Under the pieces are notes generated by a model. That model worked only from the letters and a program-made list of their open reading frames with translations, was not told the origin of the DNA and made no database searches. Below, piece after piece: positions 1 to 11,865 of a DNA stretch of 29,672 nt (positions within the stretch are counted from its first letter, which is position 1; every line of letters begins with the position of its first letter). This DNA comes from an archaeon (GTDB taxonomy: Archaea > Asgardarchaeota > Thorarchaeia > Thorarchaeales > Thorarchaeaceae), in contig JAJRZD010000006.1 of assembly GCA_024275415.1 (NCBI GenBank), positions 1 through 29,672 of the forward strand. The letters run 5' to 3'. The position numbers and the translations under genes were made by a program.

Positions 1-1059
1 CCACCAGAGCCATTAGTGAGCCACCCCATTGACCTCCAGGTGATGGAGGGTTCCATTGGTGAATACCTCACATGGAACGGTAGCGACATCGACCCGAGCA
101 GTTATGAGATCTACAGGGACGGAGAGCTTGTCCTGTCAGGGCAGTGGAACGCGTCCAGTGACCTGCTGACCATTTCTCTTGATGGGCTGACCATCGGGAC
201 CTACGTGTACTCCATCACCGTCTACGACAAGGAGGGCTACACAGCCAGCGATGAGGTCACCGTGACAGTGTATGATGGGACAGCTCCAGTCGTCGATGCT
301 CCCTCAGATGTGACGATGAATGAGGGCGAAACTGGGGTGACCATCACTTGGACACCCACCGACCTGAACCCCGCGAGCTACTCCATCAGTCGCAACGGCA
401 CGCTGGTCGTGTCTGGTTCGTGGAACACTACAGAGGAGAGCATCTCACTTACTCTGGACGGGCTTACGCTGGGGATGTGGCAGTATGCTATTACAGTCGA
501 AGATGTACATGGGAACGTCGGAACCGATGATGTCTATGTGGACGTAGTCGACGGGACAACACCAGAGATTACAGGTCCTGATGACTTCGAATACATTATC
601 TATTCCACAGGCAATACAATTGTCTGGAATGCAACAGACCTGCATCCTGCGAGCTTCTCCATAGCTGTGAATGGCACCACATTCATCCGTGGCATCTGGC
701 GCGAATCTACGATTGAGATCAACGTTGACTGGCTGGATGTGGGCACCTATGTCTACACCCTCACAGTGGTAGATGTGGGCGGCAACTCGGCTCAGGACAC
801 TGTGGTCGTCCGTGTAATAGCCGAATCATCTGGTTCACCAGACACTACTACAACAACTACTACAACCACGACAACAACAACTACTACAACTACCACTGGT
901 GGAACCCAAACGACCACACAGGATCCAATTGATGACTATGGCCGTGATCTCATAATGGGTGAGCCTCCTTCATCCATCCTTGGGGCTTCCCTTCTGTTCC
1001 TGGCCATGGGCGGAATTATCCTGATCATTGTCGTAGTGTGGCGTGCAGAGATTGTCTAG
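1..1059 (+). CDS. Cell-surface glycoprotein, 5'-truncated: at least three ~90-aa Ig-like beta-sandwich repeats, Thr-rich linker, C-terminal TM anchor
   Basis: Frame 1 is open from base 1 (PPEPLVSHP...), so the real start lies upstream of the window. Three repeats share P-x-D...W..xD..PxSY.I..NG.....G.W....I.LDGL.xG.Y.Y.ITV.D..GN...D.V.V.V. There are six N-x-S/T sequons (NGS, NAS, NGT, NTT, NAT, NGT), then 18 Thr, a hydrophobic helix (ILGASLLFLAMGGIILIIVVVW) and a short tail RAEIV. Stop is TAG at 1057-1059. Confidence 0.85.
   Translation, partial: PPEPLVSHPIDLQVMEGSIGEYLTWNGSDIDPSSYEIYRDGELVLSGQWNASSDLLTISLDGLTIGTYVYSITVYDKEGYTASDEVTVTVYDGTAPVVDAPSDVTMNEGETGVTITWTPTDLNPASYSISRNGTLVVSGSWNTTEESISLTLDGLTLGMWQYAITVEDVHGNVGTDDVYVDVVDGTTPEITGPDDFEYIIYSTGNTIVWNATDLHPASFSIAVNGTTFIRGIWRESTIEINVDWLDVGTYVYTLTVVDVGGNSAQDTVVVRVIAESSGSPDTTTTTTTTTTTTTTTTTTGGTQTTTQDPIDDYGRDLIMGEPPSSILGASLLFLAMGGIILIIVVVWRAEIV
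844..897 (+). repeat. ACN trinucleotide run encoding an 18-Thr linker
   Basis: 18 consecutive Thr codons (act/aca/acc/acg) between the last Ig repeat and the TM anchor. Confidence 0.95.
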
Positions 1060-3427: not shown

Positions 3428-5152
3428 TTACTCGGTTATTAATAACCGCATGACCTCGACACGCAGGTCATCTTCAGACAGAAATCCGGTCAGTTCCTGC
3501 CCACCAATATGGATTGTGGGCAATGCTGGAAGGTCTTCCTCTGATACTCCTGCGGCAGGGTCATCGATATTGATGATATTGAGAATTGAGAGGCCAATCC
3601 CAAGATCGTTGAGAACCGTCTTTAGGGACTCAAGAACTGGACCGCAGAAGACACAATGATCAGACTTGTAAAAGTCAATGGGCGAAAATTCGACCTCCTC
3701 TTCCCATCTGGGTAGGATGACGATGACCTTGCATCCTTTCGATGGGTCACCTTTGACCCTATCCTCAATCCATATCCTACCTCCTAAATGGTGCACATAT
3801 CTATCGACGACGGTCAGTCCAAGTCCTTTGGTGCTAACATCTTCCGGCCTGCGCCTGAACACTTTCTGTTTCAGTTCGTCAGGTACTCCGGGACCTGAAT
3901 CAGCGAATTCGATCCGGACTTCACGTCCAAAATCCTCTGTTGTGACTCGGATTTCAACATTCACAACATCACTTGGATCGTGAGTCATGGCATTATGAAG
4001 AATGTTGAAGAATATGTTGTGAAGAAAGACATGACCCGCTACTTCGATGTCCTTGTCCTCTATCTCTGTTTCATATTTCAGCTCCTTGCCTTCAAAATCT
4101 CTCTGAACCTCGATCAAAGCCCGTTTGAGATGAGGCTCGATCTTAGTATTGGTGGTTGTTGGAGGTGTCCGGTTAAGGCTCAGCAAGACGCCCATGTTCA
4201 CAATCAGACGCCCTGCCCTGCGCAGATTCCAAGATGCATCTCGCACCAGCAGGGACTCCCTGGGTGGGAGTTCCACGGACACCTTAAGATCCTCTAGGGT
4301 AAATAGAATGGTCTGTAAGATGATATTCAAGTCGCTCGTCATCAAGTCGAAATAGAGATTGGCCCGGTCGCTTTCTTCTCTCAGTCTTTGTTCTGCTCCT
4401 CGACGCCGAGTTATATCAACAGCCGTCAAACCTATCTCTGATGGGGCTTCGCTTTCAGGGTTCAATGATCGAGCAGATACACTGACCCATATTGACCGGC
4501 CAGAACAATGTTCCATCTCCAACTCGATTCCCATGACACTCTTGCCTCTTAGAACCTCTCCAACAATGTCACGTCCTGGATCAAAACCAGTTTGACCACC
4601 CATCGGTCTAAAGAACGAACCTATCGAACGGCCAATGATATCCTCAGCATTACATCCTAGGAGTTCCTCTGATGCTGCATTGACTTGTGTGACAATGCCT
4701 TCTGAATTAATTGTGAAATAGGGGACAGGGGAGAAGTCATACAGAGCTGCAAATCGTTGTTCTAACTGAATGACAGCTTCCTGCAAAGCGAGCTGGCTTG
4801 AAATGTCACGGATTGCAGCGATGATAATCGGTTCATCTTCTACTTCGATTATGCGTGGGTTAATCTCCGCATGGAATACACGGCCAGATTTAGACTTCAT
4901 CCGTGTTATGAATTGTTCAGCTTTTTTGCCATCCAGAAGATCCTCAATCTGTCCCTGATGCTGCCGTTTTGCGATCGGATCGAGGAGATCCTCAAATTCC
5001 ATGTCCAGCATGTCCTCGACATCATACTCCAACATATCAGCAAAGAGACGATTGACCTGAATGATCTCGTCTGCATGGATAACGAACATTCCCTCATGGG
5101 CAACATCCAGCATCTGTTGAAGCAAATGATTCACATCTTTCAGACTGGACAT
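3428..5152 (-). CDS. PAS-PAS histidine-kinase-like protein with His-to-Ser H-box, intact HATPase_c and C-terminal thioredoxin-fold (CVFC) domain, 574 aa
   Basis: Two PAS/PAC domains (VNRLFADMLEY...IRDIS; VNAASEELLG...AVDITRRR). H-box reads LMTSDLN (AGC at 4334-4336). N box FNILHNAMTH, G1 DSGPGVP, G2 KGLGL. The last ~85 aa read DFYKSDHCVFCGP...LPALPTIHIG, with CxxC codons at 3644-3655 and the cis-Pro motif. Confidence 0.85.
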   Translation of the reverse strand: MSSLKDVNHLLQQMLDVAHEGMFVIHADEIIQVNRLFADMLEYDVEDMLDMEFEDLLDPIAKRQHQGQIEDLLDGKKAEQFITRMKSKSGRVFHAEINPRIIEVEDEPIIIAAIRDISSQLALQEAVIQLEQRFAALYDFSPVPYFTINSEGIVTQVNAASEELLGCNAEDIIGRSIGSFFRPMGGQTGFDPGRDIVGEVLRGKSVMGIELEMEHCSGRSIWVSVSARSLNPESEAPSEIGLTAVDITRRRGAEQRLREESDRANLYFDLMTSDLNIILQTILFTLEDLKVSVELPPRESLLVRDASWNLRRAGRLIVNMGVLLSLNRTPPTTTNTKIEPHLKRALIEVQRDFEGKELKYETEIEDKDIEVAGHVFLHNIFFNILHNAMTHDPSDVVNVEIRVTTEDFGREVRIEFADSGPGVPDELKQKVFRRRPEDVSTKGLGLTVVDRYVHHLGGRIWIEDRVKGDPSKGCKVIVILPRWEEEVEFSPIDFYKSDHCVFCGPVLESLKTVLNDLGIGLSILNIINIDDPAAGVSEEDLPALPTIHIGGQELTGFLSEDDLRVEVMRLLITE

Positions 5153-5218
5153 ATCTCAACCTCAGAAATCTCCAATGGACATTATCCTACATAAAGAATC
5201 GTCTAATGTGTCCTCATC

Positions 5219-5264
5219 AAAAAATCGGGGAAAAGAAGGAGTTTCATTCGTTCCGGAAAGCCCC
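5219..5264 (-). terminator. Possible hairpin plus T-tract after the Lon-type protease gene
   Basis: On the minus strand ggggctttc...gaaactcc forms an imperfect stem, followed by ttcttttccccga and tttttt (5224-5219). Confidence 0.35.
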
Positions 5265-5275
5265 ATGAGTTACTT

Positions 5276-7657
5276 CTAACCGAATAATGAGTATTCCTTC
5301 ACTTTCTCAGCCATTTCTTTAAGGCGTTTGTCTACCAAGTAATAGACACTGCCTTCTTCAAAGGAGCCATCTTCGAGCCTCTTTCCAGCCTTGACGCCTG
5401 TCAGTATCTCGATGCCCTCTTCGATTGTACGGATGGGATAGATGTGGAACTTGCCATCTCGCGCGGACTGCACCACTTCCTCTTTTAGCATGAGGTTCTG
5501 TACATTGCTTTCAGGAATAAGCACCCCTTGATCACCAGTGAGTCCCTTTGCCTTGCACACCTCGTAGAATCCTTCGACCTTTTCATTGACGCCTCCGATT
5601 GCCTGCACTTGTCCGTGTTGGTCGACAGACCCAGTCACAGCAAAGTTCTGCTTTATGGGCACTCCAGAAAGTGCTGATAGAAGGGCGTAGAGTTCTGTGC
5701 TTGAAGCGCTGTCACCATCTACACCAGAATAGCTCTGTTCGAATACAATCCTTGCAGTCAGGCTGAGCGGTTTGTCCTGAGCAAAGACTTTTGAGAGATA
5801 CCCTGCGATGATCATGACTCCCTTTGTGTGTATATTCCCACCAAGATTTGATTCCCGCTCGATATCAACAAGTCCCTGTCGTCCTACAGCCACGCTTGCG
5901 GTCACTCGTGAGGGGCCTCCAAAGCTGAAATCACCAAATTGCATGACGGCAAGGCCATTGATCTGCCCGACAACACTTCCCTCGGTCTGGATACGGATGA
6001 CTCCTCGGATGATGTAGTCGCGAAGGTGTTCCTGTATCAAGTTCGAGCGATATATCTTCGCTTCGATTGCCATCTCGATGTGTTTGGCAGATACATGGGG
6101 AGTGTCTTCCTGTGAAGCATAGAACGTCGCTTCTCGGATAAGGTCGGCCACATCAGCGAACCGAGTGGAAAGCTTGTGCTTGTCAGCTGCTATCCGTGAA
6201 CTAAACTCGATCACTTTGGCTGCTGCGTCAGCATCCAGATGCATCAAGCCTTCTCTACCACAGACATTGGCCATGGCACCAGCATATTTCAAGATGTTCT
6301 CTTCATCTCTGAACATGGTTGTATCAAAGTGTGCCTTGACTTTGAAGAGTTCCTTGAAGTCAGGGTCTTCAGAATACAGCATCTCATACGTAGCTGTATC
6401 ACCAATAATGACAACTTTCACGTTCAATGGAATTGGCTCAGGTTTGAGGGTCTGCGCTGAAAGTGACGTGCCAGGGATGTGTACATCCTCAATTTCGATA
6501 ACCTCGTTTTTCAACGCGCGTTTCAAACTCTCATACGAACCAGGATTCTTGCCAAGACCTTCTATTGGAATCATGATGTACCCGCCGTTGGCTCGATGAA
6601 GGCTCCCGGGCTTTATCATGGTGAAATCCGTCGTGAGAATACCATACCGAGCTTCTTTCTCGATTCTCCCGAAGAGGTTAGCATAGGTCGGGTTCAGCTC
6701 CACGACTACTGGAGCGCCAGTGGTCTTTGCATGGCTCACCATGATGTTTACATCGTAACGAGTGAAGAATTGCTCTAGCCTACCAGCCTCCTCGGCAGAC
6801 TGAGGTGCCTTTGCTTGAATGATTGTTGAGATATTGTTCAGTAGACTCTCTTGTACGTCCTCGATATGTTTTGTAGCTTCATCAATTCCCTTGTACAAAT
6901 CCTTCATATCGGATATCATGTCACCAATCGCATACAGTGCCATCTCACGATTTAGCTTGTCCAGATTGGCATTGAGTTCACTATCCAGCTTCCTGAGCTT
7001 TCTCATGGCCTCCCTTAGATCGGTATCAATCGAGGAGCGGGCTTTGTTGAGTTGGTCAATCACTTCAGGACTGAGAGCAGCGATCTGTTCCTCCGTAAGG
7101 GGTTGCCCCTCAATCACGGGAATGACCATCACACCAGTCTGGGTCCCTTTAAGCAGGAATCCCTTGTCCTGCGCTTTCTTGCTGACCTCGGCGAATATCG
7201 CATTCCTTTGGGCATCAATAGTATGTGTGGTAGCCTGTCTTCGTGTCACGTAATCCTCGCTCTCAAACACTTCAGGAATGACCTGTCTTGTTGCTTCGAT
7301 AAGAGAATTAAGTTCCTTCTTGAACTTCTCAGCCATCCCACTTGGCAGCTCGATGGCATTGGGCTCAGACGGGTTCTCAAAATTGTAGACATAACACCAA
7401 TCAGAAGGTGGGTCACGCACGGCTGCACGTTCGCTGATGAAGGCGTTAACTGTCGTTGTCTTCCCAGTACCAGGTTCTCCAGCAGCATAGACATTGAAGC
7501 CCTTTTCCTTTATCGCCAGACCAAAGCTTAGCGCTTTTAGAGCACGTTCTTGTCCAATGATGTCATTGTTTGGAAGAAGATCCTTCGTCGTCTTACATCC
7601 TATGATATCTGGGCTACAATAAAAACGATAATCTTTCACATCAAGTTCCTTGACCAA
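5276..7657 (-). CDS. lon: Lon-family protease, LonC type (AAA_32 plus Lon_C, no membrane anchor), 793 aa
   Basis: IIGQERA start of the AAA module, Walker A GEPGTGKT, long coiled-coil insertion, KPGSLHRANGGY, Lon Ser-Lys dyad (GVDGDSAS and GGVNEKVEGF), C-terminal GVLIPESNVQNLML. No TM segment is present. Confidence 0.9.
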   Translation of the reverse strand: MVKELDVKDYRFYCSPDIIGCKTTKDLLPNNDIIGQERALKALSFGLAIKEKGFNVYAAGEPGTGKTTTVNAFISERAAVRDPPSDWCYVYNFENPSEPNAIELPSGMAEKFKKELNSLIEATRQVIPEVFESEDYVTRRQATTHTIDAQRNAIFAEVSKKAQDKGFLLKGTQTGVMVIPVIEGQPLTEEQIAALSPEVIDQLNKARSSIDTDLREAMRKLRKLDSELNANLDKLNREMALYAIGDMISDMKDLYKGIDEATKHIEDVQESLLNNISTIIQAKAPQSAEEAGRLEQFFTRYDVNIMVSHAKTTGAPVVVELNPTYANLFGRIEKEARYGILTTDFTMIKPGSLHRANGGYIMIPIEGLGKNPGSYESLKRALKNEVIEIEDVHIPGTSLSAQTLKPEPIPLNVKVVIIGDTATYEMLYSEDPDFKELFKVKAHFDTTMFRDEENILKYAGAMANVCGREGLMHLDADAAAKVIEFSSRIAADKHKLSTRFADVADLIREATFYASQEDTPHVSAKHIEMAIEAKIYRSNLIQEHLRDYIIRGVIRIQTEGSVVGQINGLAVMQFGDFSFGGPSRVTASVAVGRQGLVDIERESNLGGNIHTKGVMIIAGYLSKVFAQDKPLSLTARIVFEQSYSGVDGDSASSTELYALLSALSGVPIKQNFAVTGSVDQHGQVQAIGGVNEKVEGFYEVCKAKGLTGDQGVLIPESNVQNLMLKEEVVQSARDGKFHIYPIRTIEEGIEILTGVKAGKRLEDGSFEEGSVYYLVDKRLKEMAEKVKEYSLFG

Positions 7658-7809: not shown

Positions 7810-8340
7810 CTAGCGTCTTCGTCTGCCGCCACCATAGCCACGGTCTCTTCGGTCTCTGTGTCCACCATAACCGCCACCACGGCCGCCACCATAGCCAGAA
7901 TCGCGACCGCCGTAGCCACCACCACGGCCACCACCGCCACCATAGCGTGGTCGTCTGCGAAAGTCCTCATGTTCCACCGCACTCATATCGTTTTCCATGT
8001 TGACTTCTTCGATTTCTTCCTCAGCATCAGACACTTCGCCGTATTTACCAATGTTCAAGCGTAGGTTGCTTTTGAAAAGACCTGTGTATCCATTCTTGAG
8101 CTGATAGGTGGATCCAACTTCCATTGAATCGATGCTATCATCCCAGAGGGGGACTAGAACAGTGCCTGTGGAATCACCAACGATAGCATCAGCAACCCTA
8201 TGGGTCGTACCATCGTTTCGCGATGTGACTTCACGTGCCTCGCCAATCTCCACCATCTTAAAGGTGATAGTGATATTCTTCATGCGGGGTTTCAACTCCG
8301 CAATAGTAGCCTCAATAGGCTCACGTTCGTAACTACTCAT
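7810..8340 (-). CDS. ssb: Single-stranded DNA-binding protein, single OB fold (crenarchaeal SSB type) with Gly/Arg/Tyr-rich tail, 176 aa
   Basis: IAELKPRMKNITITFKMVEIGEAREV...VADAIVGDSTGTVLVPLWDD...G.TYQLKNGYT..FKSNLRLNIGKYGEV is the OB-fold SSB pattern, followed by an acidic linker and an RGG/GYGG tail. Start moved from TTG 8385 to ATG 8340. Confidence 0.9.
   Translation of the reverse strand: MSSYEREPIEATIAELKPRMKNITITFKMVEIGEAREVTSRNDGTTHRVADAIVGDSTGTVLVPLWDDSIDSMEVGSTYQLKNGYTGLFKSNLRLNIGKYGEVSDAEEEIEEVNMENDMSAVEHEDFRRRPRYGGGGGRGGGYGGRDSGYGGGRGGGYGGHRDRRDRGYGGGRRRR
7826..7945 (-). repeat. Imperfect coding repeats for the RGGGYGG tail of SSB
   Basis: ccgccaccatagcc occurs at 7826-7839 and 7883-7896, with further ccgccaccac/ccaccaccac variants up to ~7945. 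Confidence 0.8.
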
Positions 8341-8577
8341 TGTGTATTCTCTCGTTAGTGCGAATTGCAGGGGAATCAAAAACAAGATGCGTAACGGAAA
8401 TGTGAAAGAGGGTCTACCAGATTCGTTGCTTCCTTACAGCCCCTTTGAGTTTGCTTTCCTGCATTTCTATTCTTGTTGTTTAGTCCTTATTACTTTGTCC
8501 TTTTTTGTCAGCTATTTAAGAACTACAAAAGATGCCAGAGGTGAATAAAATGTAACGGGCGTAGTTAGAACAGAAAC

Positions 8578-10308: not shown

Positions 10309-11865
10309 TCAACGTGGGATCGTGAATGTGAACCGTGAGCCTTTCCCAACTTTGCTTTCGACGGTAATACTGCCTCCATGCATCTCAACCATCGATTTTG
10401 TGATCCAAAGTCCAAGACCCGTTCCACGAACCGACTCGACATATGGGTTGCTAGAACGATAGAATTTCTCAAAGAGATGTTCAAGATCCTCTGAACTCAT
10501 CCCAATCCCGGTATCTTCGACTGAAACCGCAATTGCTGATTTTCGTTTCCTGACTGTTACAGTGACTCTTCCCCCTTCCTTCGTATACTTGATTGCATTG
10601 GACATCAAATTCAGCAGGATTTGTGAAAGCCTATTGGGATCTGCTTTTATTTCAAGTGGGGATTTCGGAATTCTTGTCTGTAAGCGAATCCTCTTTTCGC
10701 TAGCCTGGGGCGAGAGTCGCTCAATCACATCCTCAATTGAAGATCGCAGGTCAACCTCTACAAGTTTGATGCGGACGGCACCAGATTCGATCTTTGAAAC
10801 TTCCAGAAGGTCGTTCACCAAGTCGCTAAGGTAATTTGCATTACGAGAAACTGTATTGAGAAACTGTCTTTGGTCATCACTAAGTTCTCCTGTATCGCCA
10901 TCAAGCATCATTTCAGTATAACCACGTATAGAAGTCAACGGAGTCCTGAATTCGTGAGTAATGTGAGAGATGAACTCTGTTTTTAGACGTTCCACTTCAC
11001 GTTCACGCGTTACATCACGAAGCACGACAAGAGACCCTATGTATTCCTCGGATTTGCTTTTCACTGGCGATGCGTATATCTCCAAGTTTCGTTTTTGAGG
11101 CCAGACCTGTGTATAGGTCGCTTGTTCGGTGAAAGTGCTTTCCGTTGATGTGAAATACTTGGAAAGAACTTCATTAGCGTTCTCAAATGCTTTTTGAAGG
11201 TGTGAATGGAGTGCCTCTGTGGTAATGGACGAATCAGAGGTGTATTGGACAAGGAACATGTCTTCAAAGCTACGGTTGAACCACAGGATGTCATGTTGAT
11301 TTGAGATGAGTACCATCGCTTCACCTGTTGCATTGAGAATGGCATCCTTTTCAGTTCGGGCATTTTCCAGTGCAGTTGTCGCTTCTTTCAACTCCTTCAT
11401 GAGTGGCATGAGGGTTGTCAGCAACTCGTTCTGTTTCTCTTCTGACTGCTTCAATCTTTCTTGCAATTCCATCTCACGAGTGATATCTTCATAGAGTGCA
11501 ATAAAGTGGGTTATCCCCTGTTTTCTTTTTTTGAATGGGATAATTCTAAGGCGGAGATGAAGTAGGCTTCCATTTCGGTCACGGTTGGTCACTTGACCTT
11601 CCCAAATCTTGCCCTTCGTAATGGTCTTCCATAGTTTGCCATAGAATCGATTATCATGTACTTGGGATTTGAATATCTCCGGCGTCATTCCGACGATATC
11701 TGCAACAGAATATCCTGTGAGGTCTCCGAACCTTTCGCTGCCCCAGAGAATGATGCCGTTAGAATCTGTGATGAATGCAGGGACTGCACTTAGAACAGAA
11801 TGGATGAGATACTCCCACTCTTCGTGTCGTAATGTGGATGGAGGCGCCACTGTCAATATCATCAC
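10309..11865 (-). CDS. PAS-PAS sensor histidine kinase (canonical HisKA plus HATPase_c), up to 518 aa
   Basis: H-box ITHEFRTPLTSIRGY, N box NLMSNAIKY, G1 DTGIG, F box LFEKFYR, G2 GTGLGL. Two PAS domains with a coiled coil between them. Starts immediately after the helicase stop (GTG 11865, ATG 11862 or TTG 11856 behind AGGTGA). Confidence 0.92.
   Translation of the reverse strand: MMILTVAPPSTLRHEEWEYLIHSVLSAVPAFITDSNGIILWGSERFGDLTGYSVADIVGMTPEIFKSQVHDNRFYGKLWKTITKGKIWEGQVTNRDRNGSLLHLRLRIIPFKKRKQGITHFIALYEDITREMELQERLKQSEEKQNELLTTLMPLMKELKEATTALENARTEKDAILNATGEAMVLISNQHDILWFNRSFEDMFLVQYTSDSSITTEALHSHLQKAFENANEVLSKYFTSTESTFTEQATYTQVWPQKRNLEIYASPVKSKSEEYIGSLVVLRDVTREREVERLKTEFISHITHEFRTPLTSIRGYTEMMLDGDTGELSDDQRQFLNTVSRNANYLSDLVNDLLEVSKIESGAVRIKLVEVDLRSSIEDVIERLSPQASEKRIRLQTRIPKSPLEIKADPNRLSQILLNLMSNAIKYTKEGGRVTVTVRKRKSAIAVSVEDTGIGMSSEDLEHLFEKFYRSSNPYVESVRGTGLGLWITKSMVEMHGGSITVESKVGKGSRFTFTIPR

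Follow-up and report, generated by a model that had tools for sequence, protein, structure and literature searches.

In a 29,672-nucleotide stretch of DNA from a Thorarchaeaceae archaeon (contig JAJRZD010000006.1 of assembly GCA_024275415.1, hereafter the window), we describe a gene, P0001, whose product appears to be a soluble PAS-PAS sensor built on a histidine-kinase core and extended by a C-terminal, redox-type thioredoxin domain. The core carries a serine in place of the phospho-acceptor histidine, and the thioredoxin-fold tail carries a CxxC pair that is kept in all the fused homologues compared. In the reading that we prefer, with about even confidence, P0001 would be a paralogue of a thioredoxin-tailed kinase, itself non-phosphorylatable and regulatory in role, with the tail acting as a dithiol/disulfide switch on the DHp/CA scaffold. 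The design is undescribed and lineage-specific, and it probably links signalling to the redox state of thiols. All functional claims made here on P0001 are computational, and everything beyond its anatomy is inference.

P0001 is an unbroken open reading frame (ORF) of 574 residues on the minus strand (3428..5152). A scan with NCBIfam concurs that it has the build of a PAS sensor kinase. The HATPase_c domain ends in KVIVILPRW, and 91 further residues (484-574) follow in frame, holding IDFYKSDHCVFCGP, NIINIDD and LPALPTIHIGG (HCVFC is encoded at 3644-3658 on the minus strand). A first-pass annotation, made from the sequence alone, had read the extension in the same way; the interval that it marked, 3428-3690, runs from E488 to E574 and includes the TAA stop. 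Recoding, for instance by selenocysteine, was ruled out, as the ORF has no in-frame stop. A word-indexed search limited to the tail retrieved about 98 proteins of 560-614 residues with the same build from NCBI, JGI, ENA and Logan assemblies; where named, these are Thorarchaeota, with single Hodarchaeota and Promethearchaeota labels. An exhaustive phmmer search of 1.84 billion representatives returned only 31 tail relatives, comprising additional fused proteins of full length, fragments, and a number of stand-alone proteins about 110 residues long. Within the window's family, each of the 76 genomes sampled has the fusion, frequently twice, and the matches listed from these genomes sit in open frames of 575-660 residues, while matches in genomes of the phylum outside the family are far weaker (1e-9 to 1e-18). 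The fusion is lineage-specific and universal in one Thorarchaeotal family. Since the same continuous frame recurs in many independent assemblies, it is not an assembly artefact, and the stop or frameshift between the domains that the first-pass annotation had considered is not borne out.

The tail had been assigned to the pattern of small archaeal thioredoxin/glutaredoxin-like proteins, and this assignment holds. As a single sequence, it is not matched by Thioredoxin_3 (PF13192), and NCBIfam gave sub-threshold matches only (DF family, E 0.06). Direct matches being sub-threshold, a profile route was needed. We therefore searched all PDB sequences with a profile of the tail built from an alignment of 55 sequences (A2), which matched Mj0307 (1FO5, E 1.3e-8) and MTH895 (1NHO, E 2e-7), covering about 80 of the 85 residues in each case. 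In both alignments, CVFC falls on CPHC/CPYC and LPALPT on the cis-proline loop. In addition, stand-alone relatives of the tail do pass the Pfam threshold for Thioredoxin_3. The AlphaFold2 model obtained from A2 (pLDDT 88.7) adopts a thioredoxin fold, with a beta-alpha-beta-beta-beta-alpha topology (strands at model residues 9-13, 41-45, 63-66 and 69-72, helices at 20-33 and 77-90) and helix 2 shrunk to a short turn. In model numbering, C500 is residue 17 and C503 residue 20, where helix 1 begins, and P545 lies one residue ahead of strand 3, the cis geometry itself not being readable from the model. When the model was compared with known structures using Foldseek and VIA-align, thioredoxins ranked first (Z up to 10.6). 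Profile and model together support the view that the tail truly belongs to the fold class of small archaeal thioredoxin/glutaredoxin-like proteins.

Conservation was counted over 110 fused proteins. Both cysteines and P545 are invariant (110/110), which settles the question of cysteine conservation raised in the first-pass annotation, and H499, just before the first cysteine, is kept in 109 of the 110. The three loops that form the substrate groove in thioredoxins (HCVFCGP, DLPALPT and L-T/S-G-F in the tail) are all near-invariant, and the linker between the ATPase domain and the tail, W-K/E-E-x-L-x-x-P, is also conserved.

The kinase core adds to the picture first drawn. P0001 had been credited with a histidine-kinase ATPase domain, and this stands (Pfam E 1.5e-17; N, G1 and G2 motifs intact); the state of the acceptor position had been missed. 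The H-box reads LMTSDLN, against MTHDLNN in more distant fused relatives, and Ser273 occupies the acceptor position; the DHp region has no Pfam HisKA match. Because Ser273 replaces the acceptor histidine, P0001 is, judging by its sequence, not a working histidine kinase and is predicted to be unable to autophosphorylate at this position. Hence, autophosphorylation of P0001 cannot be the route by which a redox switch would control kinase activity. The acceptor histidine is missing in 98 of the 110 fused proteins, replaced by S, N, T, Q or others. Among the 12 proteins that keep it, all retain the Mg-binding Asn and 11 retain G1; among the 98 His-less members, the Mg-binding Asn is lost in 76 (to Tyr or Phe) and G1 is also broken in 42. 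P0001 belongs to the minority of 22 proteins that lack the histidine yet keep N, G1 and G2. The residue four positions after the acceptor is Asn in the His-bearing sisters, and Ile or Met in the His-less clade. Within this clade, mean pairwise identity is highest for DHp (0.71, with 36% of columns at >=95% identity), followed by the thioredoxin tail (0.65), PAS2 (0.62), CA (0.61) and PAS1 (0.54); when the His-less and His-bearing groups are compared, the tail is the best-conserved domain (0.39). That DHp and the tail are the best-conserved parts while the ATP motifs decay indicates a constraint on the dimerisation or partner surface and on the dithiol module, and not on catalysis. P0001 thus has the marks of a pseudo-histidine kinase: the fold is kept, the acceptor histidine is replaced and the DHp surface is constrained. 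A membrane-bound sensor was considered and ruled out, as P0001, unlike its neighbour P0002, has no hydrophobic segment.

The window's genome (G000; 3.5 Mb, 92.9% complete) also encodes a presumptively working relative. This second fused gene (contig C21, locus L008, 1495-2937, minus strand) specifies a protein of 480 residues with one PAS domain, THDLNN and intact ATP motifs, whose tail bears four extra cysteines (in CGKTSC before beta1, RIC in beta4 and a C-terminal PCY). It shares its domain order with P0001 and with the relatives P0105-P0121. The 12 His-bearing sisters keep THDLNN and the Mg-binding Asn, all but one keep G1, and most have the four extra tail cysteines; P0105 keeps the histidine but has a two-Cys tail. 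Both types are widespread in the family and frequently share a contig, at a distance of 17-34 kb (for example at 11750 and 31023 on G137:C431, and at 96165 and 115316 on G087:C5), a spacing that suggests an old conserved synteny. A maximum-likelihood tree of the thioredoxin domains, unrooted and computed from about 100 columns, brings every fused tail into a single group (99/93), whose nearest neighbour is a six-Cys stand-alone form (99/88); within the fused group, the two-Cys tails, that is those of the His-less clade and of P0105, come together (98/90). Since all fused tails form one group, a single fusion event would be the simplest reading. Provided that the root lies outside the fused group, the simplest order would start with the fusion; the extra cysteines would have gone next, and the histidine last.

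We propose that P0001 serves a kinase complex as a regulatory partner that has no catalytic role or at most donates ATP. The oxidation state of its tail would be set by the thiol redox systems of the cell: the window's genome has three thioredoxin reductase-like (TrxR-like) genes, scoring 319-341 bits, just below the curated cut-off of 343, which imply that a reductant system exists. The catalytic subunit of ferredoxin:thioredoxin reductase (PF02943) was not found in this genome at its 92.9% completeness. The redox state of the tail would then alter how the DHp/CA scaffold engages a partner. In the window's genus, the likeliest partner would be the product of P0002, the gene that begins one base after the P0001 stop (TAA-T-ATG), because P0002 keeps its H-box histidine (WAHKMGN) beside a C-terminal ATPase-like domain without N, G1 or G2, and P0001 keeps all three motifs. 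P0001 may therefore supply ATP-binding capacity to a His-bearing, CA-dead P0002. Orthologues of the two genes adjoin in loci L004, L005 and L006 and, within the same genus, in four further genomes (G257, G161, G224 and G245); the P0002 histidine is conserved. The thioredoxin domain could be either an input, sensing redox state, or an output, reducing or trapping a target.

The evidence leans towards a dithiol function and away from a KaiB-like module, since the CxxC pair and the cis-proline position are invariant, the tail resembles Mj0307 and MTH895 and not KaiB, and the domain tree separates it from KaiC-linked thioredoxins. The first-pass annotation had offered both functions for a domain in the place where hybrid kinases carry a response regulator (REC) domain; the tail does sit there, and of the two proposals the redox switch is the one favoured.

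Several observations weigh against a redox switch on a regulatory paralogue. The pairing of P0001 with P0002 is confined to one genus: the rest of the family has only P0002 paralogues of 25-34% identity, not adjacent, and other neighbours lie beside the P0001-type gene in loci L001 and L002. The pairing cannot, therefore, explain the thioredoxin tail of the other His-less members, and P0060 (locus L001) has intact ATP motifs yet no P0002-type neighbour. No response regulator or redox target adjoins either P0001 or the His-bearing sister of the same genome. Kinases do not typically carry a sensor domain on the C-terminal side of the ATPase domain, and the CVFC dipeptide is unusual for reductases. 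Finally, the P0001 tail alone falls under every Pfam threshold, the best match being the Glrx-like family PF05768 (E 0.04, 14.7 bits against a cut-off of 26). As to response regulators, the six neighbourhoods of P0001-type genes that were examined contain no adjacent REC gene, and neither does that of the sister at L008; orphan kinases are common, so that the absence of an adjacent REC gene decides nothing.

A bolder version makes the tail the working end of the protein: signalling by this two-component-derived sensor of Asgard archaea would proceed by thiol-disulfide exchange or redox-gated docking, not by phosphotransfer, and in the window's genus the tail would gate a split kinase made of P0001 (the ATP-binding half) and P0002 (the His half). 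We regard this as unlikely; if true, kinase-derived sensors would gain a new class of output or gating. Also unlikely is a signal-gated thioredoxin, in which the PAS domains and the dead core would position or expose a tail that is itself an active disulfide reductase or isomerase, the output being thiol-disulfide exchange. The near-invariance of the three substrate-groove loops while the ATP motifs decay is consistent with such an enzyme, as are the conservation of the tail above all other domains between the His-less and His-bearing groups and the presence of TrxR-like genes. However, no candidate target is linked to P0001-type genes in the neighbourhoods examined, the several stand-alone thioredoxins of the genome could do general reduction, and DHp is conserved even more than the tail, and this suggests that a partner engages the kinase core.

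The tail might instead dock in the manner of KaiB or SasA, binding a KaiC-type ATPase and so coupling P0001 to a Thorarchaeal KaiC pair, a reading that we consider improbable. It draws on structure and on a relative in the same genome. Fold-switched KaiB (5jwo_B) superposes on the tail model with Z 9.8 and a root-mean-square deviation of 2.5 Å over 81 residues, within one unit of many thioredoxins, and the N-terminal domain of SasA (1t4y) reaches a TMq of 0.67. As KaiB and SasA superpose about as well as thioredoxins, the fold alone cannot separate the redox and KaiB-like readings. The relative is a stand-alone protein of 109 residues, 40% identical to the P0001 tail over 65 residues (E 4e-14). 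Its gene, downstream of a Ras-like GTPase gene and a Roadblock-like gene, overlaps the start of a KaiC-family gene, with a second KaiC-family gene next to it (PF06745, E 2.9e-69 and 2.3e-31; 5041-5787 and 5800-6519 of locus L021), an arrangement indicative of translational coupling; the GTPase/Roadblock/thioredoxin/KaiC cluster recurs in other Asgard contigs. Against this docking, the fused tails group in the domain tree with six-Cys stand-alone forms, and the KaiC-linked stand-alone thioredoxins lie beyond a long branch (length 1.31, 94/88); a grouping of the two did not appear in this tree, unrooted and based on about 100 columns. The tail has no match to the KaiB model PF07689 (KaiC-linked stand-alone relatives reach 24.8-25.7 bits, below the cut-off of 27), and KaiB and SasA are missing from the best 60 matches of the A2 profile to PDB sequences. 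Furthermore, none of the six neighbourhoods examined has a KaiC gene close to the P0001-type gene, and KaiB and SasA are not known to carry the CxxC that is invariant here. A complex prediction between the tail (A2) and the KaiC-like ATPase (A5), run without controls, scored 0.00 and is evidence neither way.

In a further alternative, which we find very doubtful, the two HCxxC motifs of a dimer would jointly bind a metal or a [2Fe-2S] cluster and report oxygen, iron or metal status. H499 would suit such a site, dimeric DHp scaffolds would bring two tails together, and the sister clade and the nearest stand-alone relatives have four more conserved cysteines (CGRxxC, RIC and a C-terminal Cys) in a typical metal-site pattern; the four extra cysteines of the sister tail indeed suggest a metal site there. 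The P0001 clade, however, has lost exactly those four cysteines, leaving two per chain, the CxxC pair and the cis-proline position occupy the canonical redox places, and no cluster-binding glutaredoxin outranks plain thioredoxins among the profile matches. Lastly, a chimera in which assembly or sequencing error joined a kinase gene to a small thioredoxin gene has a negligible probability and is effectively ruled out by the same frame in about 110 proteins from NCBI, JGI, ENA and Logan assemblies and in every sampled genome of the family, and by the conserved linker.

The nearest known counterparts of the tail, Mj0307 and MTH895, are likewise minimal thioredoxin folds of about 85 residues, in which CxxC opens helix 1 and a proline precedes strand 3; these Thioredoxin_3 proteins are stand-alone and carry CPHC or CPYC, whereas the P0001 tail is fused behind a kinase core, reads HCVFC and has a shortened helix 2. 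SasA of Synechococcus (1T4Y) also places a thioredoxin-fold domain, one that superposes on the tail, like KaiB (5JWO), as well as thioredoxins do, on a kinase core. The KaiB-like domain of SasA is N-terminal, is not known to carry CxxC and activates a working kinase upon KaiC binding; the thioredoxin-fold domain of P0001 is C-terminal, has an invariant CxxC on a His-less core and is phylogenetically apart from the KaiC-linked Asgard thioredoxins. DivL of Caulobacter and RetS, which acts on GacS in Pseudomonas, are pseudo- or non-canonical histidine kinases that act by binding. P0001 resembles them in its kinase fold, its replaced (in others, unused) acceptor histidine, its conserved DHp surface and its proposed role as regulator of another kinase; the P0001 family differs in being archaeal and in that many members also lose ATP-binding residues, and neither DivL nor RetS is known to carry a thioredoxin domain. 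In ArcB and RegB/PrrB, redox sensing relies on single cysteines in the PAS or DHp domains of active kinases. There, too, the oxidation state of thiols is proposed to control a two-component protein; P0001 has a whole thioredoxin module with CxxC appended to a dead kinase.

Pseudo-histidine kinases and thioredoxin-fold domains on kinases are thus kinds already known. Two-component proteins are the main prokaryotic sensory system, and many catalogues of their domain combinations exist. The first-pass annotation had not recognised the architecture as a described family, rightly so: no Pfam or NCBIfam model covers the kinase-thioredoxin fusion, and our literature search found no description of a histidine kinase fused to thioredoxin. 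It is common within its lineage, occurring in all 76 family genomes sampled. A 2018 census of archaeal two-component systems lists REC-thioredoxin reductase fusions and no kinase-thioredoxin fusion (PMC5847659). The family may offer a natural case of a kinase scaffold re-used for redox signalling, the phosphorylation chemistry having decayed around an invariant dithiol module. Because each genome holds both a working sister and a dead paralogue, and in the window's genus a complementary membrane partner too, the proposal lends itself to direct tests in vitro. The family also contributes to the view of Asgard archaea, the closest known relatives of eukaryotes, as organisms with elaborate signalling.

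Table 1. Positions of P0001, its parts and associated genes (window coordinates unless a locus is given).
Feature	Position	Strand	Description
P0001, whole gene	3428..5152	-	PAS-PAS-DHp (no His)-HATPase_c-thioredoxin-like tail; stop TAA at 3428-3430
PAS domain 1, residues 10-117	4802..5125	-	Pfam PAS/PAS_9 and TIGR00229
PAS domain 2, residues 142-248	4409..4729	-	Pfam PAS_9, E 1e-22
DHp-like helical region, residues ~255-330	4163..4390	-	Unambiguous alignment to His-bearing sister kinases; mean pairwise identity 0.71
H-box remnant LMTSDLN	4325..4345	-	Ser273 (4334-4336) at the acceptor-His position of sisters (THDLNN)
HATPase_c, residues 376-482	3707..4027	-	Pfam E 1.5e-17; N box NILHNA, G1 DSGPG, G2 GLGL intact
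Thioredoxin-fold tail, residues 490-574	3431..3685	-	beta1, CxxC, alpha1, beta2, loop, cis-Pro position, beta3, beta4, alpha3; supported by profile, AlphaFold2 model and structure matches
CVFC dithiol motif (C500, C503) after near-invariant His499	3644..3655	-	Aligns with CPHC/CPYC of 1FO5 and 1NHO
Pro545 in LPALPT, thioredoxin cis-proline position before beta3	3518..3520	-	Invariant (110/110); aligns with AVPT motif of 1FO5
P0002, downstream partner gene, 530 residues	1834..3426	-	Multi-pass membrane protein; H-box WAHKMGN; ATPase-like domain without N, G1, G2
Ras-like GTPase, Roadblock-like, CxxC Thioredoxin_3 protein, two KaiC-family ATPases	G000 contig C104, L021 3562-6519		Also in L010 and L014-L019

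The surroundings of P0001 and of its relatives include further genes. Upstream of P0001, the window encodes on the minus strand a Lon-type protease of 793 residues (5276-7657; the L004 orthologue has LonC_helical, AAA_32 and Lon_C) and an OB-fold protein with a long Gly/Arg-rich tail (7810-8385); both genes are syntenic with the P0001 orthologues in L004 and L006. After the P0001/P0002 pair, heterodisulfide-reductase-like genes (Fer4 + CCG, and two FAD/Fer4 flavoproteins) are found in the close relatives L004 (9556-13743) and L006 (10186-13223), a redox setting that is absent from the window. The His-bearing sister at L008 has in its neighbourhood a luciferase-like oxidoreductase, DsrE and a P-type ATPase, the luciferase-like and DsrE genes lying 3' of it, and no REC gene. 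The neighbourhoods of the stand-alone six-Cys relatives (P0137) gave no functional clue; nor did that of P0104, which begins at the edge of its contig and probably represents part of a fused gene. Genes of the ATC_hydrolase family occur near a P0001-type gene (L001, 9957-11713) and beside a six-Cys stand-alone thioredoxin (L023, 4343-4855), which may be coincidence. P0129, an NCBI metagenome protein of 306 residues that falls in the KaiC-linked group of the tree, combines an N-terminal Thioredoxin_3-like CxxC domain with an Arf-family GTPase (Arf, E 9e-34). At the other end of the gene pair, the first 1,059 positions of the window (1-1059, plus strand) encode the C-terminal part of a surface protein in which Ig-like modules of about 90 residues repeat; it also has a stretch of some 20 threonines and a membrane anchor at its C-terminus.

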